A stretch of DNA of 15,616 nt from an uncultured Gammaproteobacteria bacterium (GTDB lineage: Bacteria > Patescibacteriota > Patescibacteriia > Patescibacteriales > JAGXOH01), in assembly GCA_964644045.1 (NCBI GenBank), contig CAZXUK010000006.1:42659-58274 (forward strand), in the 5' to 3' direction. The notes beneath the pieces are model-generated. The model was not told where the DNA came from. It searched no databases and was given only the letters and a program-made list of their open reading frames with translations. The position numbers were made by a program, and so were the translations under genes. Shown here in pieces: positions 1,611 to 15,616 of this stretch (position 1 is the first letter of the stretch; each line of letters starts with the position of its first letter).

Positions 1611-1646
1611 TGAAAAACGCCGAAAAATTTTAAATTTTTCGGCGTT
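1611..1646 (-). terminator. Rho-independent terminator downstream of purC
   Basis: Inverted repeat aacgccgaaaaat / atttttcggcgtt (1616-1628 / 1634-1646). Read on the minus strand it is followed by a T-run (plus-strand A-run 1613-1617). Confidence 0.7.
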
Positions 1647-1653
1647 GTTGTAA

Positions 1654-2562
1654 TCAAACCAGAATTTTGTAAATTTGGGTGTAGTTGTTTTTGGTCTCCT
1701 CGATGATCTTTTGAGGTAGAGCCGGAGGAGGCGGCTGTTTATTCCAGTCCAGAGATTGAAGATAGTCCCTCAGTCCCTGTTTGTCAAAGCTTCGTTGTGA
1801 GCTTCCTGGCAGATATTCCTCCTTGGGCCAGAAACGGGAAGAGTCCGGAGTCAGAACCTCGTCGATCAGTATAAGGTCGCCATTTTCGTCCCAGCCGAAT
1901 TCGAATTTGGTGTCAGCGATAATAATACCCTTTTTTTCCGCGATCTCCGCTCCTCGCTGATAAATAGCCAGGGATAATTCGCGTACCTTCTCGGCTGTTT
2001 TTCGGCCCACAATTTTTTCGGCCTCTTCAAAACTGATGTTTTCATCATGTTCGCCGTCCGGGGCCTTGGTGGAAGGAGTAAAAAGAGGTTCGGGCAATTT
2101 GTCTGACTCTCTGAGCCCTGCCGGCAATTCAACTCCGCAGACTGTCCCGTTTTTTTGGTAGGATTTCCAGCCGGAACCGGAGATATAGCCGCGAACAATG
2201 CATTCAATCGGCAAAGGCGTGGCTTTTTTTACCAATACGGCCCGGTGTCTGAGATTTTCAATCTGTTTTCGAGATTTGAGCGGGAAAGATTCCGGCATGG
2301 TGGCTATCAAGTGGTTGGGAACAATATCCTCCATTTCTCGAAACCACATATTGGAAATCTGGGTCAGAATTTTTCCCTTGTCCGGAATGGCTTCGGCCAT
2401 AACCACATCAAAGGCGGAGATACGATCCGAGGCCACCATCAGGAGTCCGTTTTCTTTTAGGTCATAAATATCTCTCACTTTTCCTTTTTTTACTAAATGT
2501 AAATTATCCAAATCCATTAGGATCTTTCCTTGCTCTGTTAAATTTAAATTTTTCAAATTCAT
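1654..2562 (-). CDS. purC: Phosphoribosylaminoimidazole-succinocarboxamide synthase (SAICAR synthetase), long form
   Basis: 302 aa. Contains KGKVRDIYD and [11 protein letters not shown] motifs characteristic of SAICAR synthetase. RBS aaagagg lies 8 nt upstream of the ATG on the minus strand. Confidence 0.93.
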
Positions 2563-2598
2563 TAAGAACCTCTTTACTTGATTTGGTATTGGAAATTT

Positions 2599-3096
2599 TT
2601 ACGGAAAAAAATCGGATTCGATTTTTTTATCTCCTTCTTTTTGTTCGCGATGATAATTTTTGAGATTGGCGTAAATTCGGTCATCGCGATAAACCAGGGC
2701 GACCAGCTCGGCAATGGTCAGAGCCGCGTTTTCCAAGGAGTGGCTCAAGCTGATTTGGTTTAAGCCGGTGGTAAGAATACCGGTTCCTTTGGGCAGGTCT
2801 TCAATGGCGCTTCTGGCTGCCTCGTCCGTGGGTATGCCGATTACCGGCAAGAATTTACCCGAGTTTTTCAAAATTGATTTGGCAATGTCCGGCGCTTGAA
2901 AAGACATTCCTCCCAGGAAGACGATTATCTCTTCTTTTAGGCTTTTTACAAACTCGGCAAATCCGTCCCCGGAGTGCCAATGGCAAGAGGCCACGGATGT
3001 TTGATAGTGAACTTCCAGCTCATTCCAGATTTCCGTGATTTTGATAGCCTTATCCTCATCTGTGGTACTGCCTAAAATCAGGCGAACTTGACTCAT
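2599..3096 (-). CDS. purE: PurE-family protein (AIR carboxylase / N5-CAIR mutase-like), divergent. The start is reassigned to the internal ATG that has a GGAGAG RBS.
   Basis: ILGSTTD near the N-terminus matches the PurE G-S-x-S-D loop. The overall PurE architecture is present (VIGIP, TGL, C-terminal helices). The ORF track starts 12 codons earlier (3132), but aaaaaaggagagaaa sits immediately upstream of the ATG at 3094-3096. The conserved SAHRTP and AAHLPG motifs are altered (SCHWHS, MSFQAPD). Confidence 0.65.
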   Translation of the reverse strand: MSQVRLILGSTTDEDKAIKITEIWNELEVHYQTSVASCHWHSGDGFAEFVKSLKEEIIVFLGGMSFQAPDIAKSILKNSGKFLPVIGIPTDEAARSAIEDLPKGTGILTTGLNQISLSHSLENAALTIAELVALVYRDDRIYANLKNYHREQKEGDKKIESDFFP

Positions 3097-3188
3097 TTTC
3101 TCTCCTTTTTTGCAGTTTAGGTTAAAAATCAAAGAACACTTAAAGCTATCTCCTTTTATTTTTTTATAGCCTTAATAATTACGCTGAC

Positions 3189-3381: not shown

Positions 3382-4503
3382 ATGTTTGAAGCTTTTATCA
3401 ACACTTTTTTAGTAGTATTGGGATTAAATTTTTTTATTTTCGCCGTGGTAATAGGCGTAAATTGGGCATTTAAACACAGGCAGGCCGTTTATCTCGGCTT
3501 ATCAGCCATTTTTATCTCTTTGGTCGGTAGTATTATTTACCTGGGGTTTGTTTTTCATACCCAGGGATTTTGGCCAATTTGGTTTTTGGTTCTGGCCGCT
3601 CTGGTCGCCTTGATTTGGGGGATTTGGGAATATTTTTTTATTACCATTCCCGCCGACCCTCCTTCTGTCGGGGTAATGACAGTTTGGGGGGAGAGAAGGC
3701 TGATTTACGGCCAAGACAGTTATGGAGAGTGGAAGGCTATGGGGGTTTATTATGTCAAAGAGGGTTTACGTCTTCATGCTCCTTATTTTCCTTTTTTTCT
3801 CGGTTATATTGTGATTGATATAACCAAGAGGAACAGGGATATGAATCCAATGACCGTTTGGTGTAAACGGGAAGAGGAGTCTGATTCCGACCCTTCTCTT
3901 ATGGGTGCCCAGATGGCTGTATCTATTTCTTACACCTGGACCCCCGACCCTGATCGGCTGTATATGTTTTTACAGACCGGTGAAGACGAGGGAGTAGAAG
4001 AGATTATCCCGGATGTGATAGAGGAAGACGTCCGTGAGGTGGCCCAGGAAAATTATTGGGAAAAATTTCTTCCTCTTCACAAAGATTTGACTAAAAAAAT
4101 TATAAATCGTCTAACCGGAGAAAAGGAAGCTACGGCGATTATCAACGGCTCGAGTGACACCCAGGCAATGGGAATTTTAGTTTATCGTCTTAATGTCACT
4201 TCCATTAATCCGGTAGATGAAGAATTGAAAGAGTCAATTACCGCCTTTTCCCGGGAGAAAAGAGAGAGACACGCCGAGGTTTATGAAATGCAGACCGAAG
4301 CCCAGCAAGCCAATGTTCTTATGGAAGAGGCTCGCCAGGCCGGAAATCCCATTACCTTCGACCAGGCCTATGCCTTGTTAAAAAGGTATAAGCTGGCCAG
4401 AGAAGGGAAAATCAATGCTCGTCATTTTTCCTTTGAAGGACTGGACTCTTTAATCCCGGCATTAAAGAGTCTTGCAGGAGAAGGTAAAAAAATTATTAGT
4501 TAG
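3382..4503 (+). CDS. SPFH/band-7 (stomatin/prohibitin/HflK-like) membrane protein with about three N-terminal TM helices
   Basis: 373 aa. Strong RBS aaagaggagg. Hydrophobic N-terminal segments are followed by a GERR..GLRLHAPYFPF...ISYTWTPDPDRLYMF core resembling the SPFH domain, then a charged coiled-coil-like tail. Confidence 0.7.
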   Translation: MFEAFINTFLVVLGLNFFIFAVVIGVNWAFKHRQAVYLGLSAIFISLVGSIIYLGFVFHTQGFWPIWFLVLAALVALIWGIWEYFFITIPADPPSVGVMTVWGERRLIYGQDSYGEWKAMGVYYVKEGLRLHAPYFPFFLGYIVIDITKRNRDMNPMTVWCKREEESDSDPSLMGAQMAVSISYTWTPDPDRLYMFLQTGEDEGVEEIIPDVIEEDVREVAQENYWEKFLPLHKDLTKKIINRLTGEKEATAIINGSSDTQAMGILVYRLNVTSINPVDEELKESITAFSREKRERHAEVYEMQTEAQQANVLMEEARQAGNPITFDQAYALLKRYKLAREGKINARHFSFEGLDSLIPALKSLAGEGKKIIS

Positions 4504-4512
4504 GAGGCGAAA

Positions 4513-4956
4513 ATGGATGATAAAAAAACGGAAAAAGAGGATAAAAAGAGCGGAGCAATAAAAACCGTCTTTATCCTTTTGATTATTATCTTCCTAGTCT
4601 CTACTTTCTTTTTCTGTGCCAACAGTTTAACAGGAGAAGAAGAGACGAGGAAGACAAAATCGTCGGTGTCGGTGCCCCCCAAAACCAAGACAATCTCCAT
4701 TAATGAGGCCGGAGTATTCAATTTTGAGCTCCAGCCCTTGGAGAGTCTGGGGAATTGGTGGTATGTGGAGGAGGGCTTGAACTATTGTCTCTCTTCTGCC
4801 CGCAAAGATCATTCCTTTTTTGTGAAGTATAAAAGAGGTGATCTTGTTAAGATAGAGAAAGACAATGTCAGCCTCCCTGACAGAGCCGGTCCTTTTAAAT
4901 TAGTGGCCGGCGAACAGGAGGTAAAAATTACTCTGCTGGTAAGCAGAAGAACTTAA
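4513..4956 (+). CDS. Hypothetical single-pass membrane protein; possibly a short NfeD-like partner of the SPFH protein
   Basis: 147 aa. RBS taggagg lies 9 nt after the upstream stop. Lys/Glu-rich N-terminus, one TM helix (VFILLIIIFLVSTFFF), then a beta-rich C-terminal domain. The NfeD assignment rests on context and size only. Confidence 0.55.
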   Translation: MDDKKTEKEDKKSGAIKTVFILLIIIFLVSTFFFCANSLTGEEETRKTKSSVSVPPKTKTISINEAGVFNFELQPLESLGNWWYVEEGLNYCLSSARKDHSFFVKYKRGDLVKIEKDNVSLPDRAGPFKLVAGEQEVKITLLVSRRT

Positions 4957-4976
4957 ACTGCTTCCGGCTGGGTCTA

Positions 4977-5010
4977 AGGTGCGATTTTTCTAAAATCGCA
5001 CCTTTTTTTA
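4977..5010 (+). terminator. Rho-independent terminator
   Basis: Stem aggtgcgatttt / aaaatcgcacct with a 3-nt loop, then TTTTTTT at 5003-5009. Confidence 0.85.
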
Positions 5011-5022
5011 TTTTTTAAAATT

Positions 5023-5031
5023 TGCTATAAT
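5023..5031 (+). promoter_or_regulatory. Extended -10 promoter element TGcTATAAT
   Basis: TGCTATAAT at 5023-5031, about 28 nt upstream of the 5060 ATG. The same gctataataaaa 12-mer recurs at 5538-5549. Confidence 0.55.
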
Positions 5032-5059
5032 AAAATTAATCAATTTTAACTTAAAAGCT

Positions 5060-5449
5060 ATGAAAAAAATAGGTATTTTATTATTTTTGTTCGTTTTTTC
5101 TTTTTTTCTTTTCTCTCCTTGTTTGGCTCAGAGCTCTAAAGATACTGAAGGCGGAGGTCCTGACAGCGGAGTGACAGGAGAATTCCCCAATCCTTTGGGA
5201 GAAGGAGTAACAGAAAGCCCGGAGCTTTTGATCAAAAGAATTATTAATGGAATTTTGGGAGTAGTGGGCTCTTTGGCCTTGCTTATGTTTATCTACGGCG
5301 GTTTGGTCTGGATGACCGCGGCCGGAAACAATGAAAGAGTGGAGAAGGGGAAAAATATCTTGATTTGGGCCACTATCGGTTTGGTGGTTATTTTCGCATC
5401 TTATGCCATAGTTAGTTTCATTATCGAGAGTTTAACCGGAGGCGGTTAA
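5060..5449 (+). CDS. Small secreted two-TM protein resembling TrbC/VirB2-type pilin
   Basis: 129 aa. Signal peptide (cleavage predicted near CLA/QSS), a Gly/Pro-rich soluble stretch, then two hydrophobic helices separated by a short charged loop (AAGNNERVEKGKN), and a Gly-rich C-terminus. Confidence 0.45.
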   Translation: MKKIGILLFLFVFSFFLFSPCLAQSSKDTEGGGPDSGVTGEFPNPLGEGVTESPELLIKRIINGILGVVGSLALLMFIYGGLVWMTAAGNNERVEKGKNILIWATIGLVVIFASYAIVSFIIESLTGGG

Positions 5450-5466: not shown

Positions 5467-5500
5467 AACCACCGACTTTTTAGAGTCGGTGGTTTTTTTA
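5467..5500 (+). terminator. Rho-independent terminator
   Basis: Stem aaccaccgact / agtcggtggtt with loop ttttag, followed by T-run 5493-5499. Confidence 0.85.
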
Positions 5501-5517: not shown

Positions 5518-5545
5518 TTGCGCGGGAGCTTTAAAATGCTATAAT
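5518..5545 (+). promoter_or_regulatory. Sigma70-type promoter: TTGCGC, 16 bp spacer, TGcTATAAT
   Basis: -35-like TTGCGC at 5518-5523. TG at 5537-5538 and TATAAT at 5540-5545. The leader to the 5570 ATG is short and lacks a Shine-Dalgarno site. Confidence 0.6.
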
Positions 5546-5569
5546 AAAAAATAATCAAATATTTTTTAT

Positions 5570-6589
5570 ATGGATCAAAAGTTAAAAAATTTCTTAAATG
5601 AGAGCGCTCGTAAAATAGACCCGATCCTTAAAGAGTTATTGCAATCTTATCTGGAAAAGAGATTTTATAAGCTAATTGGTCAGCAAATTTCTTCCGGAGG
5701 CAAAAGATTGCGTCCCGCCCTGGTTTTGGCCTCGGGCAAAATGATGGGAGCGCGGGAAAAGGATTTGCTTTATCCGGCCACGGGGGTGGAGATTTTGCAC
5801 AACAGCACCCTGATCACCGATGATATTATAGATAAAAGCGAAGTCAGGCGAGGCAGGCCTACGGTTTGGAAAAAATTCGGTCGTTCCGTGGCCGAATGCG
5901 TGGCCATGGATTATGCGGCCACGGTTTTTTTGGCCGCTAATCGATCACCTTATTCCCAAGAGATTACCGAGATCTATTCCCGTGCCTTTAAAACCATTTG
6001 GAGCGGGGAAATTCTGGATATTTTATTTGAGCAGAAAGGTAGGGAAGATGAGCCCTATATAATTAAGAATCGTTTTAAGAATGTTTCCTTGAATTCTTAT
6101 TATAAAATGGCGGGGAAAAAAACCGCTGTTTTGTTTCAGGGTTGTTGTGAAATCGGAGGGGTCTGCGCCCGGGCCGGGGAAAAAGATTTGCAAACCCTGA
6201 GTGAATATGGTTATAATCTGGGCATGGCTTTCCAAATTCGCGATGATATTTTGGATATATTCGGGGAGGAGAAGGATTTTGGCAAAAAAATAGGCAAGGA
6301 CATAAAAGAAAGAAAATTGGGCAATATCGTGATTTTTTATGCTTTGAAAAATTTATCTCCTGCTGACAGAAAGAAGATTTTTCGAATTTTGGAAAAGAAG
6401 GAGATCGGAGAAAGAGAGATAAAAGAGGGGATTGCTTTAATTAAAAAAACCCCGGCTCATGATCAGGCCTTTGCTTTGGGTAAAAAATATATAACAAAAG
6501 CCAAAAATAATTTAGAAAAATTGCCTCAAAATAATTGGAATAAGATATTATTGTCTCTAACTGATTTTGTAATAGAAAGAGAAAAATAA
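5570..6589 (+). CDS. Trans-polyprenyl diphosphate synthase (IspA/IdsA family; chain length C20 or longer likely)
   Basis: 339 aa. Contains GGKRLRP, a first Asp-rich motif DDIID followed by xxxRRGRPT (short 4-residue form), and a second Asp-rich motif FQIRDDILD. Residues at -4/-5 before the first motif are small (S, T). Confidence 0.9.
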   Translation: MDQKLKNFLNESARKIDPILKELLQSYLEKRFYKLIGQQISSGGKRLRPALVLASGKMMGAREKDLLYPATGVEILHNSTLITDDIIDKSEVRRGRPTVWKKFGRSVAECVAMDYAATVFLAANRSPYSQEITEIYSRAFKTIWSGEILDILFEQKGREDEPYIIKNRFKNVSLNSYYKMAGKKTAVLFQGCCEIGGVCARAGEKDLQTLSEYGYNLGMAFQIRDDILDIFGEEKDFGKKIGKDIKERKLGNIVIFYALKNLSPADRKKIFRILEKKEIGEREIKEGIALIKKTPAHDQAFALGKKYITKAKNNLEKLPQNNWNKILLSLTDFVIEREK

Positions 6590-6615
6590 TTTTAAATTTA
6601 GTTATCTCCAAGAAT

Positions 6616-7473
6616 ATGAAAAAAAATATAGATTTATATAAAAAAGAAACAGGAAAATTCCTTGCTTTTTTAGAGGAGGAGATAAAAAAGACAGGGATGG
6701 AGGAAGAATTTTTTGCCTCTTCCCGTCGGATCCTGGAAAAAATATCCGCTTCCGTAACCTCTAAATGGCTTTCCGGCAGAAAATATTGTCGGACTTTTTT
6801 CTTGCAAGAAGCTTTCGGCTCTTTTTACCCCTCTTCCTATACCTCTGTTTCTTTATTTTTAGACGCTTTGGTTAATATTTCCGATGATCTTTGTGATGAA
6901 CCTTTAGAAAAAGAAGAGATCAGTTTGTATATGGCTGAATGCTTGAAGCTTTTGTCCTTACTTAATTCTTCTTCTCAGGCATCCCTACTACAGCCAGGTC
7001 TGGGCGTTTATTTTAGCAAATTATTATCCTTGGTTATGGCTGAGAATTTTTATAGGGAAAAAATTTCCCAAAGCGGGGGCTATAAGCAAATAGTTGAGGA
7101 TTCGTCTAAATTATTGTTAATTCGCGCTCAAGATATAGATGTCTTTACAGAAATTGCTTTACTTGATTTGGACTCACAAAAAGACCTTGATTTAATAAAG
7201 AAAATAGCCAGAATCTTTCGGGCCATAAATATTTTTAAAAAAGATATAAAAGACCTAGATTATGATCTTTCCCGCAATATCAAAACCATAGTCACCATAC
7301 TCCGAGATAAAGATATAGATTTTAAAAATTATACCCAGGATTTGTTAGAAATTTTAGAGACAAAAGTAAAAGAGTTGTCTGTTCCACAAAACAAAGACTT
7401 AGAGTCGCCTTTTCAAAATTTCCAGATAATGATAGAAAGAGAAAAAGAGGAGATTCTGGAAATGTTGGATTAA
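6616..7473 (+). CDS. Hypothetical helical protein with isoprenoid-synthase-like Asp-rich motifs (possible divergent squalene/phytoene-synthase-like or class I terpene-synthase-like enzyme)
   Basis: 285 aa, 26 bp downstream of the polyprenyl synthase with no promoter between them. ISDDLCDE at residues 88-95 and NIFKKDIKDLDYD at residues 205-217 resemble the two Asp-rich motifs of head-to-head trans-IPPS enzymes (xxDDxxD and NIxRDxxED). Confidence 0.5.
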   Translation: MKKNIDLYKKETGKFLAFLEEEIKKTGMEEEFFASSRRILEKISASVTSKWLSGRKYCRTFFLQEAFGSFYPSSYTSVSLFLDALVNISDDLCDEPLEKEEISLYMAECLKLLSLLNSSSQASLLQPGLGVYFSKLLSLVMAENFYREKISQSGGYKQIVEDSSKLLLIRAQDIDVFTEIALLDLDSQKDLDLIKKIARIFRAINIFKKDIKDLDYDLSRNIKTIVTILRDKDIDFKNYTQDLLEILETKVKELSVPQNKDLESPFQNFQIMIEREKEEILEMLD

Positions 7474-7510
7474 TTTTTTAAACAATTTTTTAGCAGTTGT
7501 TTTTTATTTT

Positions 7511-7939
7511 ATGCTTTTAAACTCTGATTTAAAAATTGCTGTGGGCAGTGTAATTGTTTATGACAATAAAGTTTTGATACTAAAAAGAAACGAGGATGAA
7601 GAAGTTCTTCCCGGCCTTTGGGAGCTGCCCAGCGGAAAACAAGAAGAGGGAGAGAATCGGGAAGAAAGTTTGATAAGGGAGGTTAAGGAGGAGACCGGTT
7701 TGGATATAGAAATAATTGCTTTCCTCAGTAGCTTTACTTACAAAGTTAAGAAAGGAAAAACAACCAAAAACATAATTCAATTCAATTTTTTGGTTAAGCC
7801 CGGGGATGCTTCTCCGGTTGTTAAATTAAGTTCTGAGCATTCCGAGTATAAATGGATCGGAGCCAAAGATCTGGAAAAAGCCGAATTAAGCAAGCAAATA
7901 AAAAAAGTTATTAATAAATATTTTCAAACTTATTTATGA
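7511..7939 (+). CDS. Nudix hydrolase
   Basis: 142 aa. Canonical Nudix box GKQEEGENREESLIREVKEETGL (G-x5-E-x7-REVxEETG). No Shine-Dalgarno site upstream. Confidence 0.88.
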   Translation: MLLNSDLKIAVGSVIVYDNKVLILKRNEDEEVLPGLWELPSGKQEEGENREESLIREVKEETGLDIEIIAFLSSFTYKVKKGKTTKNIIQFNFLVKPGDASPVVKLSSEHSEYKWIGAKDLEKAELSKQIKKVINKYFQTYL

Positions 7940-8829
7940 TTTATAAGAATGTTTTAGAAACTATTGGCAATACTCCTTTGGTAAGAATAAATAATTTAAA
8001 CATTAATTCTGAAGTGAATATTTATGCTAAATTAGAAGGGGTAAATCCAGGTGGAAGCATTAAGGATAGGATTGCCCTTAATATGATTAATCAGGCCGAA
8101 GAAGAAGGCGTTTTGGATAAAGAAAAAACTATAATTGAACCCACTTCCGGAAATACCGGCATCGGTCTGGCCATGATAGGAGCGGTTAAGGGCTACAAGA
8201 TTAAAATAGTTATGAGCGAGTCCGTGTCCGAGGAGAGAAAAAGAATGATTAAATCTTTTGGCGCGGAGCTGGTTTTAATAGCCTCGGACGAAGGAACGGA
8301 CGGAGCCATTAGGAAGGCCAAAGAGATTGTAGAGAAAAATCCCAAAGAATATTTTATGCCCAACCAATTTTCCAATCAGTATAATAAAATGGCGCATTAC
8401 AAAACCACGGCTGAGGAGATTTGGACTCAAACCGAAGGCCAGGTTGATTATTTTGTCTCTGCCTTGGGAACCTCGGGAACCATTATGGGAGTAAGCAAAT
8501 ATTTAAAGGAAAAAAATCCGAATATAAAAATTGTTAGTGCTCATCCGCATAAAGATCATTATATTCAAGGGTTAAAAAATATGGAAGAGGCGATTGTGCC
8601 GGAGATTTATGAGGAAAGTAGTATTGATGAGACGGTTATGGTGGATAGTGAGAAAGCTTTTGAGGTTACTCGTCAAATTGTTCGCCAAGAAGGTATTTTT
8701 GTGGGCATGAGCAGTGGAGCGGCCATGTTTGCGGCCTTGCAGGTGGCCGAGAAAATAAAAGCAGGAAACATTGTGGTTATTTTTCCGGACAGAGGAGAAA
8801 AATATCTTTCTACCCCCTTGTTTGAGTAA
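7936..8829 (+). CDS. cysK: Cysteine synthase (O-acetylserine sulfhydrylase, CysK/CysM family; PLP-dependent)
   Basis: 297 aa. PLP-lysine motif SIKDR, TSGNTG, GTSGT and a C-terminal NIVVIFPDRGEKYLSTPLF that matches the CysK C-terminus closely. The start overlaps the Nudix stop by 4 nt (ATGA). Confidence 0.88.
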   Translation: MIYKNVLETIGNTPLVRINNLNINSEVNIYAKLEGVNPGGSIKDRIALNMINQAEEEGVLDKEKTIIEPTSGNTGIGLAMIGAVKGYKIKIVMSESVSEERKRMIKSFGAELVLIASDEGTDGAIRKAKEIVEKNPKEYFMPNQFSNQYNKMAHYKTTAEEIWTQTEGQVDYFVSALGTSGTIMGVSKYLKEKNPNIKIVSAHPHKDHYIQGLKNMEEAIVPEIYEESSIDETVMVDSEKAFEVTRQIVRQEGIFVGMSSGAAMFAALQVAEKIKAGNIVVIFPDRGEKYLSTPLFE

Positions 8830-8854
8830 TTTTAAATTTGTTTAACAATAGTAT

Positions 8855-8882
8855 AAATATCTTGTAATAAAGATATTTTTTT
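8855..8882 (+). terminator. Probable weak AT-rich Rho-independent terminator ending the 5570-8829 operon
   Basis: Stem aaatatctt / aagatattt (8855-8863 / 8870-8878), loop gtaata, T-run 8876-8882. Confidence 0.4.
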
Positions 8883-8893
8883 GTTGGATTTGA

Positions 8894-8922
8894 TTGACAT
8901 TTTATTTTAAAAATGTTATTTT
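8894..8922 (+). promoter_or_regulatory. Sigma70-type promoter: TTGACA, 17 bp spacer, TGtTATTTT
   Basis: Consensus -35 at 8894-8899, TG at 8914-8915 and TATTTT at 8917-8922. About 45 nt upstream of the strong RBS aaaagaggagg of the exporter gene. Confidence 0.55.
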
Positions 8923-8969
8923 GCAAGGTTCGAACTTTGACAATTTAAAACAAAAAAGAGGAGGATATA

Positions 8970-11528
8970 ATGTATACTCAAAGAAAATGGTGTGTTTTTG
9001 TTGTTTTAGCATTCCTGGTGTTTACCTGTTTTTTCGCTTTTATGAATATGCGGGTAAAGCCGGGCGGCATTGTGGATGATGCTGTGATGGCGGAAGAAGA
9101 TCTTGTTAACCAAGGCGGAAGAGTAATTGATTCTCTGCGGAGTCAGGGCCTAGCTCCGGGAGACGCGGCTATTTTTTGTCTGCCCTTTTTATACCGGGGC
9201 GAGGCCATGAAAAAGGATTTGGCCTTTCTCCAAGATTTTACCCAAAAATTGGAGAGGGCTTTTCCGCGTTACAAAGTCTTCAGCTTGGCCAATATGCCCC
9301 GTTTTCGGGATGTTGAGGACTCCTATTTGGAGACTCAAAGTTATGTCAGTCCCGAGGTGTTGGCAGATTTTGACCCGGGTGATTGGAAGCGAGAGGTACT
9401 CCGCGACCCCAAGGTGGCCGGGGTGTTTATTGCTCCTGATTTTTCTTCGGCCAATGTCATTTTAACCTTTCCCAGAGGTTATGACGAAATGCAGGTCGGG
9501 CGGGAGATTATGGAGTTTTTAATGGATAGGGAGTGCGCTTGGTATGAGTGGTATTTGATAGATGATATCAAGCTCGCTTCCCAGTTCCTGCGAAACTTTG
9601 ACTCTGAGGTGCCTGAGTCTCTTCAGAGAGATCAGGACAGGCACCGGACCGAGGACGGATCGATTAAATCGGTTCTGCCCGGTGGCTGGGTTATCGGACG
9701 AGTCCTTATGACCGGGGCTTTTTACTCCAGTCTAATCTGGATCTTGTCCGGCTCCATTATTTTGGCAGCCTTGGTCTTTTGGCTGTCTTTTGCCAACTTA
9801 AGACAGACTGCTATTGCTCTGGTTTGTCTGCTCCTGGCCCTGATTTGGACCCGCGGTTCAATCGGCCTGTTGCAGACCTTGGGCTTTAGTATTCAGGGAA
9901 AAATGCTTTACGAGACAGTTTATTTCGTTTTAGTGTTTACTTCCCTGATTGTCTCCGGGATTTCCTTTGTAGAAAGGGTCTTTGACGCCTACAACGAAAA
10001 ACGCAAAGGTAATCCGGAACTGAGCCGGGCCGAGGTTTGGAAAAAAACCAAGGCCAAGGACATAGAGTTGATTGATGAAAGGATTTTAATGACCGGTCTG
10101 GTGGCAATCTTCGGATTTGCTACGCTTTACCAGATTGAGATCAGGCAGATCTTAGAGATCGGCTTTTTCTCCGCCTTGGGACTGGTTTTCCTTTTACTTT
10201 TCACTCTTTACCTGGTTCCGGCTGTCCATATTTTAGTCGGAGGTGAGCATTCTCGGCAAGAGAATTCAATTCCGGATAAATGGTGGCGGATCTTGGATTG
10301 GCTGGTTCGGAAAAGTTTCCAACTGGCCACTCCTAAAAATAGAGAGTTTAGAAAAAAAGGCTGGAGCGCGGTCGCGGTAGTGGCCGTTTTGTTTCTGCTT
10401 ATGTCTTCCTTGGTGGCTTCCGACCATGTCGGTCCTTCCAAGGGTTTTAGTTTTGTGGATATCAAAACCGAACCCTTGGAGTTTATTAAGGACACTTTGG
10501 TCTATGAGGCCTCAGAGGAGATTAACAGAAAAGATAACTACGGCTTTGACCGGGCCATGTTCGTGATCCAAAGTAAAAAGGAAGGAGACACTCCGGCTGT
10601 TTATCGCCCCGAGTTTTTAAGGGAGGTAGATAGTTTTCAAGAGACCATAGCCGAAGACCCTTACCTGAAAGGAAAAATCAGGTATATTTATTCGGTTCTG
10701 GATATTCTGGAGATTTTATGCCGGGAAAATTACGGCCATCACTTGCCCCAAACTCAAGCTGAAGCGGCTGACAGCCTTCGGCTTATACGATCCGAGATCG
10801 GGATTACCGGCCAAAGGCAGTTATGGAGCCGGGAGGCTTTGATAGTCCAGGTGTCGGTATCCAGCACCAATTCCAATATTCAGGAGTTTGTGCTTAACCG
10901 GGTGCTGGAGATATCCGGGGAAAGTTTTCCTGACCTAAAAGTGCATACTTTTGGCAAGGTGGCTATGTATGCCCGTTCAGACAAATATTTGCGGGAGAGG
11001 AAGCCGGTTAACGCCGGGATGCAGATCTTCTGGATATTCGGGTTTACCTTTGCCTGGATTGCCTGGCGTAATCGGCGTTTTCGCAAGTCCCTGAAGGATG
11101 ATTTTTATCTTTCTTCCTTTAGAGCCGGTTTGGCTATTTGCCTGCCCTTCGTCTTTGCCTCCACCATGATAGCTTTTATTATGATGGCCATGCGCATCCC
11201 CTTAAATCAGGCCACGGCCTGCATTACCGCCTTGACCGTGAATGCGGCCATTGATTTTTCCCTTTACATAGTGGCTGATTATCAGGCTGCTTTGATTAAG
11301 GGAGGGGGATATTTGGAGGCGATTAAATACGCCGTCCTAACGCGGGGGCGAGTGGTGGTAATTGATGTGGCTATCAATACTGCTTGTTTTGCTCCTTTGA
11401 TGATTTCGCCTTTTGCTCCCATAGCGGACATTGGCTGGATCATGATGACAATGCTCATTTTTTGCGGTTTTGGGGCTATGGTGCTTTTACCCATGGTTTT
11501 GCCCTTGGCTGTGAAGGAAAACAACTAA
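8970..11528 (+). CDS. MMPL/RND-superfamily exporter (12 TM helices, two large extracytoplasmic loops; HpnN/MmpL-like size)
   Basis: 852 aa. The pattern TM1, a roughly 200-aa loop, TM2-6 repeats twice (second TM7 around residues 455-475, TM8-12 at about 690-850). This is the internal duplication typical of the RND/MMPL/SSD fold. Strong RBS. Confidence 0.75.
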   Translation: MYTQRKWCVFVVLAFLVFTCFFAFMNMRVKPGGIVDDAVMAEEDLVNQGGRVIDSLRSQGLAPGDAAIFCLPFLYRGEAMKKDLAFLQDFTQKLERAFPRYKVFSLANMPRFRDVEDSYLETQSYVSPEVLADFDPGDWKREVLRDPKVAGVFIAPDFSSANVILTFPRGYDEMQVGREIMEFLMDRECAWYEWYLIDDIKLASQFLRNFDSEVPESLQRDQDRHRTEDGSIKSVLPGGWVIGRVLMTGAFYSSLIWILSGSIILAALVFWLSFANLRQTAIALVCLLLALIWTRGSIGLLQTLGFSIQGKMLYETVYFVLVFTSLIVSGISFVERVFDAYNEKRKGNPELSRAEVWKKTKAKDIELIDERILMTGLVAIFGFATLYQIEIRQILEIGFFSALGLVFLLLFTLYLVPAVHILVGGEHSRQENSIPDKWWRILDWLVRKSFQLATPKNREFRKKGWSAVAVVAVLFLLMSSLVASDHVGPSKGFSFVDIKTEPLEFIKDTLVYEASEEINRKDNYGFDRAMFVIQSKKEGDTPAVYRPEFLREVDSFQETIAEDPYLKGKIRYIYSVLDILEILCRENYGHHLPQTQAEAADSLRLIRSEIGITGQRQLWSREALIVQVSVSSTNSNIQEFVLNRVLEISGESFPDLKVHTFGKVAMYARSDKYLRERKPVNAGMQIFWIFGFTFAWIAWRNRRFRKSLKDDFYLSSFRAGLAICLPFVFASTMIAFIMMAMRIPLNQATACITALTVNAAIDFSLYIVADYQAALIKGGGYLEAIKYAVLTRGRVVVIDVAINTACFAPLMISPFAPIADIGWIMMTMLIFCGFGAMVLLPMVLPLAVKENN

Positions 11529-11532
11529 ACTC

Positions 11533-11569
11533 GGGGTGCGGTCAACTCCTGTTGCCGCACCCTTTTTTC
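11533..11569 (+). terminator. GC-rich hairpin plus T-run inside the operon (partial terminator or attenuator) between the exporter and LolA-like genes
   Basis: Stem gggtgcggtcaac / gttgccgcaccc with loop tcct, then TTTTTT at 11563-11568. The RBS agaggagg for the next gene follows immediately. Confidence 0.65.
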
Positions 11570-11584
11570 TAAAGAGGAGGCAGT

Positions 11585-12355
11585 ATGAAAAGGATAATGA
11601 TTTTTCTTCTTCTGGGAATATTATTCGCTTCCCTTGCCTGGGCTGAGGGTTTTACCACTGCCCGGGACGTGATCGAAAAGTCTTACGAGTTTTATCGTCA
11701 GGGCGCGGAAGTGGAGTTTGAGAAGCTGCGCCTGGAGGTAAAATACGAGGATGGTTATTCGGTGAACAAAGAGTTGGAAAGGTGGATAAAATATAATCCA
11801 AAAAAAGAGGATAAAGTTTTTATCAATTTTACGGCTCCGGAAATGGACAAAGGGCTTAAGCTTTTGGTTCATCGCCGGCTTAGCCAAAGTGATTTGATTT
11901 GGCTTAAGATGCCCTCTATGCATCGCTCGCGCCGGATCTCGGGTCAGGACGAGGGCAAATATTTTGCCGAAACCGACCTCACCTATCGGGACACGGCTCA
12001 GCTGGTGGGGGAGAATACCAGCGACTATAAGTATAGCTTCGTGGATTCCGGTGACTCCAAATGGGTGATAGAGGCCTTGCCCAAACCGGGCATAACCGCT
12101 GTGTATGATAAAAGAGTCTTTTTCCTTAACGAGAATTATGTTATTGAAAAAGTTCTGTATTATCGCCACGGGCAATTGGGTAAAATCCAGCTAAACAAGG
12201 ACATAGTCCGGGAGGACAACGGGTGTTGGCGGAGTGACTCGGTTGTGTTTATTAATGAATTTTATAGCCGGGTAACTAACATAAAAATTCCCGAAAGGAA
12301 ATTTACCGGTTTTACCAACCCGCCGAGTTTTTCCCGGAGAGATTTAAGGAGGTAG
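11585..12355 (+). CDS. Secreted LolA-like 'outer membrane lipoprotein-sorting protein' family protein (periplasmic, not a lipoprotein)
   Basis: 256 aa. Signal peptide ending AWA/EG with no lipobox Cys. The segment FTAPEMDKGLKLLVH...DLIWLKMPSMHRSRRISGQDEGKYFAETDLTYRD matches the remembered signature of the LolA-like family that accompanies MMPL exporters. Confidence 0.55.
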   Translation: MKRIMIFLLLGILFASLAWAEGFTTARDVIEKSYEFYRQGAEVEFEKLRLEVKYEDGYSVNKELERWIKYNPKKEDKVFINFTAPEMDKGLKLLVHRRLSQSDLIWLKMPSMHRSRRISGQDEGKYFAETDLTYRDTAQLVGENTSDYKYSFVDSGDSKWVIEALPKPGITAVYDKRVFFLNENYVIEKVLYYRHGQLGKIQLNKDIVREDNGCWRSDSVVFINEFYSRVTNIKIPERKFTGFTNPPSFSRRDLRR

Positions 12356-12357
12356 AG

Positions 12358-13584
12358 ATGAGAAAAATTGTGATTCTTTTTGTTTTTTTTGTTCTTGCGC
12401 CTCTCTCTGCTTCTGCCTTGAATTTTGATCTGGAAATAGAAGGGCAAGCTTCCAGTTATTTCTATGAAGAAGAAGAGGTGCCTCTGGAAGAAGATGAAAG
12501 GTATTATGGGGAAGCAGAAGTGATTTTGCCGGCTCGTTTAAACGCGAATAATTGGGAGCTCTTGCTTGAGCCCCGGATTCGCGTTGATAGCGAGGAGATT
12601 AGCCAAGGAGGCGAAGACCCCCGGGATTTTCGTCGGCCCATAGTAGGAGTAAGAGAGGCCTATTTTGCCTTTTGGCAGGAGAAGCTGGAACTTCGCTTGG
12701 GCTACCAGATCGCTGATTGGAGTATGACCGATACGGTCTCTCCCAGTGACAACCTGAATCCTCTGGATCTAACCCTGATTCCGGACTGGGAAAGGCGGAG
12801 TATTCCGCTCGTGACCGCTCGTTACGGCTATGACACCTATTTGGAAGCGGCCTATAAACCCTTTTTTTCTCCCTCTTTTCTCCCTGATTTTAAATGGAAA
12901 CGCGAAAAAGAAGGAGTGGAGTTTCTAAAGCAAAAAGAAGAAGAGGACAAGGCCCAGTTCGCCCTGAGGGCGGGAGGCATCTTTTGGGGCACTGATTGGC
13001 AGATCTGTTATTACCAAGGTTATGCTGACAGCCCTTACGCAGAAGTGGAGCGTCTCACTCTCTCGGGTGTTGAGCTTCGCCCCCGCTATTCTGAGGAGGA
13101 AGTGGGGTCTCTGGGGCTGGCCCGGGATGTGTTTGCCGGAGTTGTTTTCCGGGCCGAGGCCGGATATTTCTCCCAAGACTACGGTGATGATTTTTATCAG
13201 TATGTGGTCGGCTTGGAGAAACACTGGCAAAGTGCCTTAAGTCTGGGAGATGAGCTTTTTTTCCTGGTTCAATACTCCGGGGAAGAAGTGGCTGAGGAGG
13301 ATGAAGAAATTACTCCTCTAACCGACTTTAGACGGATCTTTAGAGATTGCCTTTTAGTGAAAGCCTATTACCAATTCGGCCGAGGCAGTCACTGGAGGCT
13401 TAAGGTCCGTGGTTCCTATAATCTGGAGAATTATGACAGTTTTTGGGAGCCTGCCCTGGAGTGGAAAGGGGATCACTTCTCCTGTGAACTGGGGGCCCAA
13501 GTCATTGACGGGCCAGAAGAGAGTTTTTGGGGAGGATACAAGGAGAATGACTGTATCTTTCTCAAAACCAAGATTAAATTTTAA
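12358..13584 (+). CDS. Putative outer-membrane beta-barrel protein (secreted, C-terminal Phe)
   Basis: 408 aa. The ATG lies 2 nt after the upstream stop, with RBS aaggagg, so translation is likely coupled. Signal peptide ASA/LN. Many amphipathic alternating strands with aromatic residues (LELRLGYQIADW, FALRAGGIFWGTDWQICYYQGY, RLKVRGSYNL). The terminus IFLKTKIKF matches the OMP C-terminal signature. Confidence 0.55.
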   Translation: MRKIVILFVFFVLAPLSASALNFDLEIEGQASSYFYEEEEVPLEEDERYYGEAEVILPARLNANNWELLLEPRIRVDSEEISQGGEDPRDFRRPIVGVREAYFAFWQEKLELRLGYQIADWSMTDTVSPSDNLNPLDLTLIPDWERRSIPLVTARYGYDTYLEAAYKPFFSPSFLPDFKWKREKEGVEFLKQKEEEDKAQFALRAGGIFWGTDWQICYYQGYADSPYAEVERLTLSGVELRPRYSEEEVGSLGLARDVFAGVVFRAEAGYFSQDYGDDFYQYVVGLEKHWQSALSLGDELFFLVQYSGEEVAEEDEEITPLTDFRRIFRDCLLVKAYYQFGRGSHWRLKVRGSYNLENYDSFWEPALEWKGDHFSCELGAQVIDGPEESFWGGYKENDCIFLKTKIKF

Positions 13585-13596
13585 GGAGGACATATA

Positions 13597-13634
13597 ACCG
13601 GCGTTTACAAAATGTAGGCGCCGGTCTTTTTTTG
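13597..13634 (+). terminator. Rho-independent terminator ending the exporter operon
   Basis: Stem accggcg / cgccggt with an extended imperfect inner stem, then cTTTTTTT at 13626-13633. Confidence 0.75.
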
Positions 13635-13682
13635 CAAAAAAACACAAACACCTTTGTTTTAGAGAGTTTTTTAGATTTTTAT

Positions 13683-13711
13683 TTGACATTTATCTCTTTT
13701 TTTGTTATTAT
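13683..13711 (+). promoter_or_regulatory. Sigma70-type promoter: TTGACA, 17 bp spacer, TGtTATTAT
   Basis: TTGACA at 13683-13688, TG at 13704-13705 and TATTAT at 13706-13711. RBS aaggagg lies 7 nt before the 13770 ATG. Confidence 0.6.
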
Positions 13712-13769
13712 TTAAAAACTTTATAAATAGATCTTTTAAAAAATCAAAAATAAAAAAAGGAGGACGGTA

Positions 13770-14753
13770 ATGTTGTTTTTTAACGAAAAAGCGGAAAATG
13801 AAGTTAAGGCAGAATCCCAAATTGACATTTCCGTCCTGGAAGAGGAAAGAACCGGGCGGATTTATCAGACCATCCTGGTCGCGGTCAGTATTCTGGCCGG
13901 CATCAAGAATTGGGGGATTATCCTTTTCCTGAAAGTTTTTTGGAGCAGGAAGACTCCCCTGAAAAAAATTGCCTGGAACTTGGGAAGAAGTGATGGCCAC
14001 AAGTCTTCCATGTTTATGGACGGCTTTAGCTCTTACAATCATCAGGCCAAGTATGGGGCTGCCGGTTGGCGTTCTTTGAAGCTGTTTTATAATTATGAAC
14101 AGCTGGAGAAGGAACTCTGTCCCAACCTGGAAGGTCTTTTGACAAGACATTGGATGGGAAAGATGGAGAATCGCAAAGCGGTGACTAACCGCTTAAAAAT
14201 GGTTATCCAGCACCTTATTTCCGCCTTTCAGGAGTTTGAGGAGGAGGCAGAGATAAGAATCCTTTCCTTAGCCTCCGGATCGGCCCAGGCCGTGATTGAG
14301 GCCATGAAGCGTTGCCCCCATTTAAAAATCCGGGCAATCTTGATTGACCTGGACGTGGGTGCCTTGGCTGAGGCCAAGAGCCAAGCCAGGGAAGCCGGTC
14401 TTCTGGATCGTTTTAAGTTTGTCCAAGGGACCACCACCAAGATGGAGGAGGTAGCGGCTGATTTCCAGCCCCACATTGTAGAGATGGTGGGCTTTCTGGA
14501 CTATCGGCCTAAAGGAAAGGCTATTGAGCTTCTCCAGAGAATCAAGGCAATCCTTCCGGAAGGGGGAATTTTTCTGACCGCGAATATCGCGGATAACAAG
14601 GAAAAAATCTTTTTGGATTTTGTCCTCCTCTGGCCCATGATTTACCGGACTGAGGAAGAGCTGGAGGATATCCTTGCCTCCTCCGGTTTCCTGGAGTTTT
14701 CTTTAAAATTTGAGCCCATGGGCATACACGGCATTGTCTATGCCCGGGCTTAA
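13770..14753 (+). CDS. Class I SAM-dependent methyltransferase with an approximately 150-aa N-terminal extension
   Basis: 327 aa. Motif-I-like segment IRILSLASGSAQAV and motif-II-like AILIDLD, plus a downstream acidic/hydrophobic pattern typical of the Rossmann-fold MTase core. Substrate unknown. Confidence 0.6.
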   Translation: MLFFNEKAENEVKAESQIDISVLEEERTGRIYQTILVAVSILAGIKNWGIILFLKVFWSRKTPLKKIAWNLGRSDGHKSSMFMDGFSSYNHQAKYGAAGWRSLKLFYNYEQLEKELCPNLEGLLTRHWMGKMENRKAVTNRLKMVIQHLISAFQEFEEEAEIRILSLASGSAQAVIEAMKRCPHLKIRAILIDLDVGALAEAKSQAREAGLLDRFKFVQGTTTKMEEVAADFQPHIVEMVGFLDYRPKGKAIELLQRIKAILPEGGIFLTANIADNKEKIFLDFVLLWPMIYRTEEELEDILASSGFLEFSLKFEPMGIHGIVYARA

Positions 14754-14759
14754 AACCTC

Positions 14760-14795
14760 AAGGGATGTTTGTGATAGCAAACATCCCTTTTTTAA
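14760..14795 (+). terminator. Rho-independent terminator
   Basis: Stem aagggatgtttg / caaacatccctt with loop tgatag, T-run 14788-14793. Confidence 0.85.
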
Positions 14796-14850: not shown

Positions 14851-15616
14851 ATGTCTTTTTATGCTCTTACAGGTTTGATTAACGGAGTAACAAGTGTTGT
14901 TGCCGGTTTTTTTATTTTAAAGAAAAATTTTAGCTCGCAAATTAACAAAGTTTTTACTTTTCTTTGTTTTTCCATAGCTTTATGGAGTTTTGCTTATTTT
15001 TTTTGGTTAAACAGTCAAAGCGCAGAAGCGGCCTTATGGTGGTCCCGTATTTTTATGGCCGGGGCTATTTTTATTCCCGTGTTTTTCCTACATTTTGTAG
15101 TTTTGTTTTTAGGGGCTAAAAAAATTAAGTCCTTTCTAAAATGGGTTTATCTATTATTTATTGTTTTTTTAGCTTTTGATTTTACTCCTTGGTTTATTAA
15201 GGGCCTTAAATCTTTTCCCGATTTTGAATTTTGGCCTGAGCCTGGCATAGCTTTTCATATTTTTTTATTCTTTTGGTGTTTGATTTGGTTTTTGGCCTTT
15301 TTTCTTCTTTTTGAAAAATTATTTTTTGAGAAATTAAAACCTGTTAAAGAAAATCAACTTTTTTATTTATTTCTCGGCTCTCTAATCGCCACCGTGGGAG
15401 GGGCAACCAATTATTTTCTGTGGTATGACGTTCCCATTCTTCCTATAGGAAATGTATTAGTACCTTTATTTGTTTTTGCTACATTTTATACTATTACCAA
15501 ATATAATTTTATGAACCTCAAGGCGGTGCTTTCCGAGGTGTTGGTAATTATTTTTTCTTTACTTCTTTTGGGAAATATTTTTGTGGCTAATAATATATTG
15601 GAATATATTTGGAATA
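14851..15616 (+). CDS. N-terminal part of a polytopic membrane sensor (7TM-receptor-type input domain of a signal-transduction protein); truncated by the window end
   Basis: The ORF is open from the ATG at 14851 to the last base. It was missed by the ORF track because it has no stop in the window. At least six or seven hydrophobic helices rich in F, W and L are separated by short loops. This resembles the 7TM N-terminal domains of membrane histidine kinases and diguanylate cyclases. Confidence 0.5.
   Translation, partial: MSFYALTGLINGVTSVVAGFFILKKNFSSQINKVFTFLCFSIALWSFAYFFWLNSQSAEAALWWSRIFMAGAIFIPVFFLHFVVLFLGAKKIKSFLKWVYLLFIVFLAFDFTPWFIKGLKSFPDFEFWPEPGIAFHIFLFFWCLIWFLAFFLLFEKLFFEKLKPVKENQLFYLFLGSLIATVGGATNYFLWYDVPILPIGNVLVPLFVFATFYTITKYNFMNLKAVLSEVLVIIFSLLLLGNIFVANNILEYIWN

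Follow-up and report, generated by a model that had tools for sequence, protein, structure and literature searches.

We analysed a 15,616-nt stretch of a Patescibacteria (Candidate Phyla Radiation, CPR) metagenome-assembled genome (MAG), referred to below as the window (contig CAZXUK010000006.1, positions 42,659 to 58,274 of the forward strand). From position 5570 to the window end all substantial open reading frames (ORFs) lie on the + strand. They form an isoprenoid unit with two additional genes (unit 1), a cassette encoding an MMPL-type transporter of the RND (resistance-nodulation-division) superfamily, a LolA-like protein and a β-barrel (unit 2), and a class I S-adenosylmethionine (SAM) methyltransferase of family PF12147 (unit 3), followed by a HisKA_7TM histidine kinase gene (Table 1). 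The original prediction had joined the three units into one system for making, methylating and exporting a membrane isoprenoid. On balance, we find it probable that the three transcription units do not constitute a single obligate pathway: an autonomous lipid-type transport cassette would be linked to a methyltransferase-kinase module, and the isoprenoid unit would be separate. Taken singly, the parts are of kinds already known (HAE3 RND cassette, class I methyltransferase, polyprenyl synthase). The question that the locus addresses is how Patescibacteria obtain, modify and place lipids, and the cassette with its methyltransferase, which is associated with PlsC-type acyltransferases, and seven-transmembrane (7TM) kinase is a concrete candidate for lipid trafficking or remodelling in this phylum.

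Every gene of the original prediction was found in place on the + strand in the ORF check, and the domain searches bore out the assigned identities (polyprenyl synthase, NUDIX, CysK/M, MMPL, LolA_like and methyltransferase), with two ORFs, 6616-7473 and 12358-13584, giving no family match. The locus had been closed at 14795, and this boundary did not stand, since the kinase gene, the conserved partner of the methyltransferase, begins at 14851. The window proteins were identical or near-identical to HMB66184-HMB66188 ("Patescibacteria group bacterium", NCBI MAG proteins). A chimeric assembly behind the GC shift at about 8.9 kb was considered and rejected, as the junctions were reproduced by the independent ENA contig L001 and by JGI contigs. 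The same gene order over the CysK/MMPL and barrel/methyltransferase junctions was carried by independent ENA, JGI and Logan assemblies (L001-L007), and the arrangement is thus no assembly artefact.

The transport cassette

Domain, topology, barrel-model and fold matches indicate that unit 2 encodes an HAE3-like RND protein, a protein of LolA-like type and a barrel that resembles DUF1302. The MMPL protein scored 66 bits against the HAE3 model TIGR00921 (cut-off 351.9). In a hydropathy scan it showed the 12 transmembrane (TM) helices and the large extracytoplasmic loops between TM1-2 and TM7-8 expected of an RND protein (TM1 7-25, loop 26-253, TM cluster 254-423, TM 466-484, loop 485-720, TM cluster 721-848). 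Its best match among PDB structures was a weak one to HpnN (6wu0, E 0.006), and it would be the motor of the cassette. The LolA-like protein, encoded next to the RND gene, scored above cut-off with both PF17131 and DUF1329; it carries a signal peptide, lacks a lipobox Cys and matched the structures 9tp6, 4z48 and 3bk5. It would be the carrier of a hydrophobic ligand. The third protein of the window had no Pfam match, and its structure model was a closed barrel (predicted local distance difference test, pLDDT, 94.4; predicted template modelling score 0.89). A signal peptide and a ...KIKF β-signal at the C-terminus are present as well; together with the closed barrel these are the marks of a substrate of the β-barrel assembly machinery (BAM). 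The barrel family comprised 698 representatives at E <= 1e-3, and 14 of 60 sampled members matched DUF1302 (best E 1e-12). The three genes are separated by gaps of 56 nt and 2 nt, the barrel gene starting 2 nt past the LolA-like stop codon.

The intact order MMPL, LolA-like, barrel was found in at least eight CPR-type loci (the window, L038, L039/40, L041, L045/46, L047, L128 and L129), and among the seven loci other than the window the neighbours of the cassette differed from locus to locus. The MMPL proteins of L038, L039/40 and L041 were 76%, 63% and 59% identical to that of the window. Comparison with L038 gave cassette dN/dS values of 0.04-0.09 (MMPL 0.04) at saturated dS, a pattern of purifying selection.

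The barrel is a real oddity and the least expected element of the locus, because Patescibacteria have been described as monoderm (PMC8871954). It poses an envelope puzzle, being of an outer-membrane type that is hard to fit to the usual envelope of the phylum. A conserved outer-membrane-style cassette in Patescibacteria appears to be undescribed in the searchable literature.

Some further features of the cassette loci were recorded. All six CPR barrels inspected (window, L038, L039, L041, L045 and L047) carried a signal peptide and a C-terminal ...x-hydrophobic-x-Phe β-signal typical of BAM substrates. The place taken by the methyltransferase in the window, directly downstream of the barrel, was occupied by an alpha/beta hydrolase gene in L039 (14899-15744), L040 (6984-7829) and L041 (4066-4914); this hydrolase is of the Hydrolase_4/Abhydrolase type, and its best NCBIfam matches were lactonases, esterases and related alpha/beta hydrolases, far under cut-off. 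In L129 (5934-9175) the MMPL gene consisted of two overlapping ORFs of 519 and 567 aa; a sequencing error, a frameshift or a gene that is naturally split could each account for this.

The methyltransferase-kinase module

The unit 3 protein has a Rossmann SAM-binding core, with an S166-x-A-S-G-S-x-Q173 loop and D193/D195 as its invariants. More than 200 homologs of about 50% identity were found that match it over 91-98% of the length; they come from Patescibacteria, Thiotrichaceae, Rhodocyclales, Nitrosomonadales, Smithellaceae and other groups. Its N-terminal stretch of about 150 residues had been called an untypical extension; it is conserved in more than 100 homologs that align over the same 91-98%. 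Since these first residues are conserved with many invariant polar positions, the "extension" is rather what defines the family. The N-terminal domain also includes a conserved, moderately hydrophobic helix (about aa 33-55) with basic residues on either side, and the methyltransferase is membrane-associated. It was to count against the original prediction if the protein showed confident homology to nucleic-acid or protein methyltransferases; the searches gave no such homology, only weak sub-threshold matches, with curated models such as UbiE and CmoM at E 1e-4 to 3e-3. In the PDB it matched MppJ (3e-5), over the Rossmann core only. Its substrate would be a lipid or a hydrophobic small molecule.

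A census of the methyltransferase was made by hidden Markov model search and comprised 110 loci (30 genome, 80 metagenome). The HisKA_7TM kinase gene adjoined the methyltransferase gene in 52 of them, usually 0-120 bp downstream on the same strand. Compared with the kinases encoded after the methyltransferase at other CPR loci, that of the window showed 35-48% identity and fell in the same orthogroup; the methyltransferase and the kinase are a module conserved across CPR. A PlsC-type acyltransferase (PF01553) was fused or adjacent in nine loci, with fusions in L017 (3138-4751) and P0034 and neighbouring genes in L027, L029 and L034 among them. A neighbour-joining tree did not discriminate between a methyltransferase native to CPR and one that arrived with the cassette. 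Literature searches on PF12147/Methyltransf_20 and on MMPL in Patescibacteria found no papers, and those on LolA in CPR, TP0789 and aryl polyenes found nothing relevant.

In four CPR loci a radical-SAM family was encoded a few kb upstream of the methyltransferase (L008 630-1886; L009 950-2302; L023 1317-2456 and 5538-6632; L030 7462-8520).

Linkage of the methyltransferase to the cassette

The functional link between exporter and methyltransferase that had been proposed earlier found support. Five of the 110 census loci had an MMPL gene near the methyltransferase gene, and the methyltransferase family was seen beside MMPL-type genes in five independent arrangements. In the window the order is cassette, methyltransferase, kinase. 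On a 530-kb metagenome contig, locus L128 (3135-11317) carries the same five genes in another order, namely methyltransferase, HisKA_7TM-GAF kinase, MMPL, LolA-like and barrel, on one strand and with gaps of about 100 bp. The Thiotrichaceae loci L011/L016/L068 have LolA-like, a DUF1302-like barrel, MMPL and methyltransferase, and this cassette is so distant that tblastn gave no link between its MMPL and that of the window. The Moraniibacteria locus L027 shows MMPL, a 150-aa ORF, PlsC, methyltransferase and kinase, and in L072 the methyltransferase is followed by MMPL. In the tree of the methyltransferase these MMPL-linked cases are spread over three or more deep clades. In L128 an alpha/beta hydrolase gene was also seen upstream, at 1582-2427.

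A rough estimate, made with no formal test, puts the chance of finding a given single-copy gene within 5 kb of the cassette at about 1% for genomes of about 1 Mb. The methyltransferase gene lay near the cassette in two of eight independent CPR-type loci, in different gene orders, and it lay beside MMPL-type genes in three further cases; by the same rough reckoning this exceeds the chance expectation. The coupling is facultative, since most loci of either kind lack the other. The recurrent coupling that joins the cassette with a 7TM kinase and a PF12147 methyltransferase linked to PlsC appears to be undescribed in the searchable literature.

Comparison with characterised transport systems

The closer characterised analogue of the cassette is AmeABCD rather than HpnN. 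AmeABCD of Castellaniella defragrans brings together an RND protein of HAE3 type, an outer-membrane protein of the DUF1302 family and a LolA-like protein of DUF1329, and its deletion lowered monoterpene tolerance and reduced dye efflux (PMC6394551). DUF1302/DUF1329/BNR/RND genes of Pseudomonas (PP_0765/0766 and PP_2018/2019) share fitness phenotypes (bioRxiv 10.1101/2020.07.04.188060). Both sets have an HAE3-type RND inner-membrane protein, a LolA-superfamily periplasmic protein (DUF1329/PF17131) and a DUF1302-type outer-membrane barrel, and the cassette of the window has a LolA-superfamily protein together with an HAE3-like RND protein and a barrel that resembles DUF1302. The components are encoded together in each case; those of the known sets are co-expressed and handle hydrophobic molecules, as those of the cassette would. 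The differences are also clear. The fourth component AmeC (BNR/Ycf48-like, COG4447) had no counterpart among the ORFs of the window or of the CPR cassette loci, and the gene order was different. The window barrel has 408 aa and itself falls below the DUF1302 model, compared with 605 aa in AmeA, and the LolA-like protein has 256 aa, compared with 451 aa in AmeB. The host is a Patescibacterium and not a diderm proteobacterium, and the cassette, unlike AmeABCD, is linked to a PF12147 methyltransferase and a 7TM kinase.

The hopanoid analogy of the original prediction turned out to be a loose one. Like HpnN, the MMPL protein of the window is of the RND/MMPL type, a putative lipid transporter encoded close to isoprenoid synthesis genes, and this part held. 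Orthology failed, as the HpnN model TIGR03480 gave 24 bits against a cut-off of 751.85 and covered the C-terminal 130 residues only. HpnN operates without periplasmic or outer-membrane partners (PMC6394551), unlike the cassette. Hopanoid clusters contain shc, hpnCDE and radical-SAM methylases, and no such domains were present in any ORF of the window. The methylase class differs as well, hopanoid methylases being radical-SAM enzymes and the methyltransferase of the window a class I Rossmann enzyme.

The isoprenoid unit

Unit 1 contains a genuine two-enzyme isoprenoid unit (5570-7473). Its first protein is an archaeal-type polyprenyl diphosphate synthase with the first and second aspartate-rich motifs (FARM, DDIID; SARM, DDILD) invariant among orthologs. 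The best NCBIfam matches were IdsA and geranylgeranyl diphosphate (GGPP) synthases, all under the equivalog cut-offs, and the best PDB match was 4dhd of Pyrobaculum (E 2e-62). Orthologs in L039, L041 and L044 were 46-52% identical. At position -5 before the FARM the window synthase has Ser, and its orthologs have Ser, Asn or Tyr; in mutants of archaeal GGPP synthases, a small residue there allows chains beyond C20 to be made.

The ORF at 6616-7473, which the original prediction had included in the operon without singling it out, encodes a second isoprenoid-fold protein. This 285-aa protein had no match in Pfam or NCBIfam and none in a PDB profile search at E up to 10. Its model (pLDDT 90.2) was an all-α bundle, and it carries the invariant motifs N-I-x-D-D-x-x-D-E and K-D-x-x-D-x-x-x-D. 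Membership of PF00348 failed at the sequence level, the fold alone matching, and hhalign gave a probability of 0.2% against the neighbouring synthase. Its relatives in fold, the trans-isoprenyl diphosphate synthases and the prenyltransferase MoeN5, likewise have two long helices that each carry an Asp-rich motif at the C-terminal end, with no detectable sequence or profile similarity to the 285-aa protein. The latter differs from them in its second motif, which is K-D-x-x-D-x-x-x-D and not DDxxD, in its shorter length and in its restriction to CPR-type genomes; the family is small, with 16 matches, all from CPR or unclassified. The 285-aa protein is probably an enzyme that uses a prenyl diphosphate. 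A diverged synthase paralog or non-catalytic partner was disfavoured, given the missing profile similarity and the invariance of both Asp-rich motifs, and we prefer a catalytic role to that of a heteromeric partner of the synthase. The pair of synthase and 285-aa protein recurred in L044. The locus thus reveals a new prenyltransferase-fold family beside an archaeal-type polyprenyl synthase, previously unannotated and, as it appears, undescribed in the searchable literature.

The 285-aa family was also seen to precede a 7TM histidine kinase of a second orthogroup (family members at L042 8001-8882, L043 8001-8921 and L044 1193-2074), distinct from the orthogroup found after the methyltransferase. 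Between the polyprenyl synthase and the second-orthogroup kinase, L041 has a UbiA prenyltransferase in place of the 285-aa protein. CPR genomes thus have two paralogous 7TM kinases, each encoded downstream of enzymes for lipids or isoprenoids.

The two remaining genes of unit 1 are probably passengers in a compact, co-directional genome. The NUDIX protein was tried as a type 1 isopentenyl diphosphate isomerase and rejected, since MutT models matched it far better (1e-16) than isomerase models, which reached 3e-5, well under cut-off. The NUDIX gene was not kept beside the synthase or the cassette in relatives, and CysK was absent at the equivalent position in L038-L047. The presence of cysK, left unexplained before, is accounted for in this way, as neither gene is conserved at this position anywhere.

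The inclusion of the isoprenoid operon in the same system was not supported by the census, in which neither a polyprenyl synthase nor a 285-aa protein was encoded within 10 kb of the methyltransferase at any of the 110 loci. Among the eight independent CPR-type cassette loci, a synthase lay near the cassette in the window, L039/40 and L041 only, the ortholog being 1.7-5 kb away in the latter two. It was absent from the available flanks of L038 (the closest relative by MMPL identity), L045/46, L047, L128 and L129. L039/40 and L041 share their flanks (response regulator, FtsJ, AAA_14 and alpha/beta hydrolase, with a pilin in L039 as well) and differ by one inversion, and because of this the synthase-positive loci may count as a single event. 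The proximity of synthase and cassette is probably inherited synteny within one sub-lineage. The complete three-unit arrangement, whose absence from relatives was to speak against the original prediction, was found nowhere else, a result that largely goes against that prediction.

Proposed mechanism and alternatives

In the explanation that we favour, the RND/MMPL protein, by analogy with HAE3 RND systems, would use the proton motive force to take a lipid-like molecule from the cytoplasmic membrane and would hand it to the secreted LolA-like protein with its hydrophobic cavity. On the same analogy, an outer layer would be crossed, or docked at, by way of the 18-strand DUF1302-like barrel. The substrate of the methyltransferase, which often has a PlsC partner, would be a lipid or some other small molecule soluble in membranes. 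Because the methyltransferase recurs beside MMPL-type genes in unrelated gene orders, the methylated molecule would most likely be either what the transporter carries or a precursor of that cargo. The 7TM kinase may act as a membrane-embedded sensor or regulator, and the isoprenoid pair would stand as a separate unit. Gene identities and folds, unit boundaries and the counts for conservation and linkage are observations, and the cargo, the direction in which it moves, the target of methylation and the part played by the kinase are inferred.

Several observations weigh against this explanation. Most loci do not show the coupling: 105 of the 110 methyltransferase loci have no nearby MMPL gene, and the methyltransferase is missing from six of the eight cassette loci. 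Its gene in the window is isolated by a strong terminator on either side, and its tightest partner is a kinase, which may speak for signalling and not for lipid chemistry. Curated models and solved structures offer a likeness of the methyltransferase over the Rossmann core only, and its lipid substrate is putative. A barrel with an outer-membrane-type β-signal is hard to place in a monoderm phylum (PMC8871954). A polyprenyl synthase does adjoin the cassette in three related genomes. Both characterised HAE3 systems, HpnN and AmeABCD, handle isoprenoids (PMC6394551), and an isoprenoid cargo could be argued from this; comparative genomics lends it little support.

It is doubtful that the cassette is a horizontally acquired AmeABCD-like efflux or tolerance pump for solvents, terpenes or detergents, with the methyltransferase-kinase pair as an unrelated neighbour. 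The deletion phenotype of AmeABCD fits such a pump, as do the absence of the methyltransferase from most cassette loci, a GC content and a GC content at third codon positions (GC3) of the cassette above those of its immediate flanks in the window, L039 and L041, and the AAA_14/DUF4143 or recombinase neighbours that hint at mobility in several loci. Against it, five arrangements that differ in gene order have the methyltransferase beside MMPL genes, the change in composition is a modest one (cassette GC3 0.50-0.54, close to purC/purE), no flanking repeats were found, and strong purifying selection over deep CPR lineages indicates a core and not an accessory role.

A reversed direction of transport, in which the cassette would be a device for lipid acquisition or remodelling and not an exporter, seems unlikely. 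The epibiont would have an outer layer so far unrecognised that contains the barrel, or the barrel would lie in the outer membrane of the host. Lipid of the host would be brought by the secreted LolA-like protein to the RND protein, in a hand-off like that of NPC2 to NPC1, and once captured it would be remodelled by the PlsC-linked methyltransferase, with a membrane-sensing 7TM kinase in control. Another version supposes that these CPR lineages have a second, outer membrane. Patescibacteria are regarded as epibionts and are reported to be unable to make their own membrane lipids. In the eukaryotic, lysosomal NPC2/NPC1 pair, which has no barrel, a soluble protein with a hydrophobic pocket hands lipid to an RND-superfamily protein; it is a mechanistic analogue only, with no claim of homology, and serves as an example of lipid transfer to the membrane and not away from it.

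The integrated system of the original prediction, in which the synthase and the 285-aa enzyme would make a membrane isoprenoid, the methyltransferase would methylate it and the cassette would export it as an analogue of HpnN and the hopanoid pathway, we regard as improbable. It would suit the back-to-back order of the units on one strand, the nearby synthase orthologs in L039/40 and L041, the isoprenoids carried by the two characterised HAE3 systems (PMC6394551) and the identity of the 285-aa protein as a second isoprenoid enzyme. The Ser at the chain-length position of the synthase also hints at a product longer than the C15-C20 housekeeping range. It has to contend with the census, in which no methyltransferase locus has the synthase or the 285-aa protein nearby, and with the five of eight independent cassette loci that lack a synthase, the closest relative L038 among them, while the three positives share flanks one inversion apart and may be a single event. 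NUDIX and CysK stand between the units, each unit appears to have a promoter and terminator of its own, the HpnN model is far under its cut-off, and the window holds no cyclase or squalene synthase.

Least probable of all is a methyltransferase that serves signalling by the 7TM kinase, methylating it in a CheR-like way or making its small-molecule ligand with no role in bulk lipid or transport: the kinase is by far the most conserved neighbour, usually within 120 bp, and a second 7TM kinase orthogroup likewise follows other enzymes (the 285-aa protein, UbiA), but the methyltransferase has no similarity to CheR or other protein methyltransferases, its PlsC fusions and hydrophobic N-terminal helix indicate a membrane lipid, a strong terminator separates it from the kinase gene in the window, and it is about 50% identical in Proteobacteria without an adjoining kinase (L011-L016, L018), so that its substrate is not CPR-specific.

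Transcription signals and base composition

Each unit had been predicted to possess its own promoter and terminator. The promoter-like sites in the two intergenic gaps were the top two of the whole scan, and three strong terminators were identified, in agreement with that prediction. It did not hold for the CysK/MMPL gap, where no GC-rich terminator was found and the weak hairpin, a possible leaky terminator, was not detected by the terminator scan. Consensus sites as such were not in excess over shuffled sequence (promoter-like 20 versus 18.1, terminator-like 18 versus 14.6). The TGcTATAAT element was left unscored by the consensus scan because it has no good -35 element at the right spacing. 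AGGAGG ribosome-binding sites precede the ATG of the MMPL gene (8970), where the site is strong, and that of the methyltransferase gene (13770).

Table 1. Coordinates of the genes, transcription units and signals of the window
Feature	Position	Strand	Evidence
T4SS (type IV secretion system) pilin (PF18895), CPR-typical, just upstream of unit 1	5060-5449		
Intrinsic terminator after the T4SS-pilin gene, upstream edge of unit 1	5467-5494	+	12-bp stem and T-run, dG -19.1 kcal/mol, z -6.4
Extended -10 promoter-like element TGcTATAAT, 5' of the polyprenyl synthase gene	5537-5545	+	Direct sequence reading
Unit 1, isoprenoid, NUDIX and CysK/M	5570-8829	+	
Trans-polyprenyl diphosphate synthase, archaeal IdsA/GGPPS-like	5570-6589	+	PF00348 198.6 bits (cut-off 27)
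285-aa protein, trans-prenyltransferase/class I isoprenoid synthase α-fold	6616-7473	+	
Small NUDIX hydrolase	7511-7939	+	PF00293 74.5 bits; overlaps the cysK start by 4 nt
Cysteine synthase CysK/CysM	7936-8829	+	TIGR01136 399 bits (cut-off 344)
Weak AT-rich hairpin and T-run between cysK and the MMPL gene	8855-8878	+	Fold of 8830-8895, dG -12.3 kcal/mol, z -2.9
Sigma-70-type promoter-like site TTGACA-17-TATTTT with TG, 5' of the MMPL gene	8894-8922	+	10/12 matches
Unit 2, MMPL/LolA-like/barrel operon	8970-13584	+	
RND transporter, MMPL/HAE3-like, 852 aa	8970-11528	+	PF03176 24.5 bits (cut-off 20.5), residues 372-447 only
Secreted LolA-like/TP_0789-like protein, related to DUF1329, 256 aa	11585-12355	+	PF17131 79.3 bits; DUF1329 36.3 bits
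18-strand outer-membrane-type β-barrel, distant DUF1302 relative, 408 aa	12358-13584	+	
Strong intrinsic terminator closing the transport operon	13597-13625	+	13-bp stem and T-run, dG -20.5 kcal/mol, z -4.8
Promoter-like site TTGACA-17-TATTAT with TG, best of the region, 5' of the methyltransferase gene	13683-13711	+	11/12 matches
Unit 3, PF12147 methyltransferase	13770-14753	+	
PF12147 (Methyltransf_20) class I SAM methyltransferase	13770-14753	+	32.6 bits (cut-off 21), residues 142-326
Strong intrinsic terminator 3' of the methyltransferase gene	14760-14789	+	13-bp stem, dG -19.2 kcal/mol, z -5.8
HisKA_7TM histidine kinase, N-terminal 7TM sensor domain, runs past the window end	14851-15616	+	PF16927 59.7 bits

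The GC3 of the MMPL, LolA-like, barrel and methyltransferase genes was 0.50-0.585, that of the genes from the synthase to CysK 0.34-0.42 and that of the kinase gene 0.275. As regards a recent island, the cassette and methyltransferase genes thus lie above their flanks but equal purC/purE (about 0.50). A search for direct or inverted repeats flanking the cassette gave nothing beyond AT-rich chance matches. The fall in GC3 from 0.585 to 0.275 between methyltransferase and kinase occurs within 100 bp, across the strong terminator; in other CPR methyltransferase-kinase pairs GC3 was similar in both genes, with no such jump.

An AAA_14/DUF4143 ATPase gene flanks the cassette in L039 (8441-9805), L040 (526-1890), L041 (4987-6333) and L129 (4205-5596), and a recombinase/resolvase gene lies within 10 kb of it in L045/46 (L045 19528-19813). 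These neighbours may hint at a mobile cassette, and together with its GC above that of the adjoining genes in L039 and L041 they suggest a possible horizontal acquisition.

Flanking genes and minor observations

No tRNA gene was found in the window, and an Rfam search of the intergenic gaps, made at gathering thresholds, showed neither a riboswitch nor any other known RNA. Directly upstream of the synthase gene, the region 3382-5449 encodes an SPFH/Band-7 protein (373 aa), a 147-aa ORF without family match and the T4SS pilin; pilin and polyprenyl synthase genes are near one another in L039 as well. On the - strand, 217-3132 holds an NAD(P)HX repair gene (YjeF_N and carbohydrate-kinase domains), PurC and a PurE-like gene. 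Patescibacteria are usually described as lacking nucleotide biosynthesis, in contrast to these purine-synthesis and metabolite-repair genes. Finally, an 18-nt near-repeat, TAATTTTAAATTT-r-GTTTA (89% identical), is present at 6587-6604 and 8827-8844, its copies starting at the stop codons of the polyprenyl synthase gene and of cysK.

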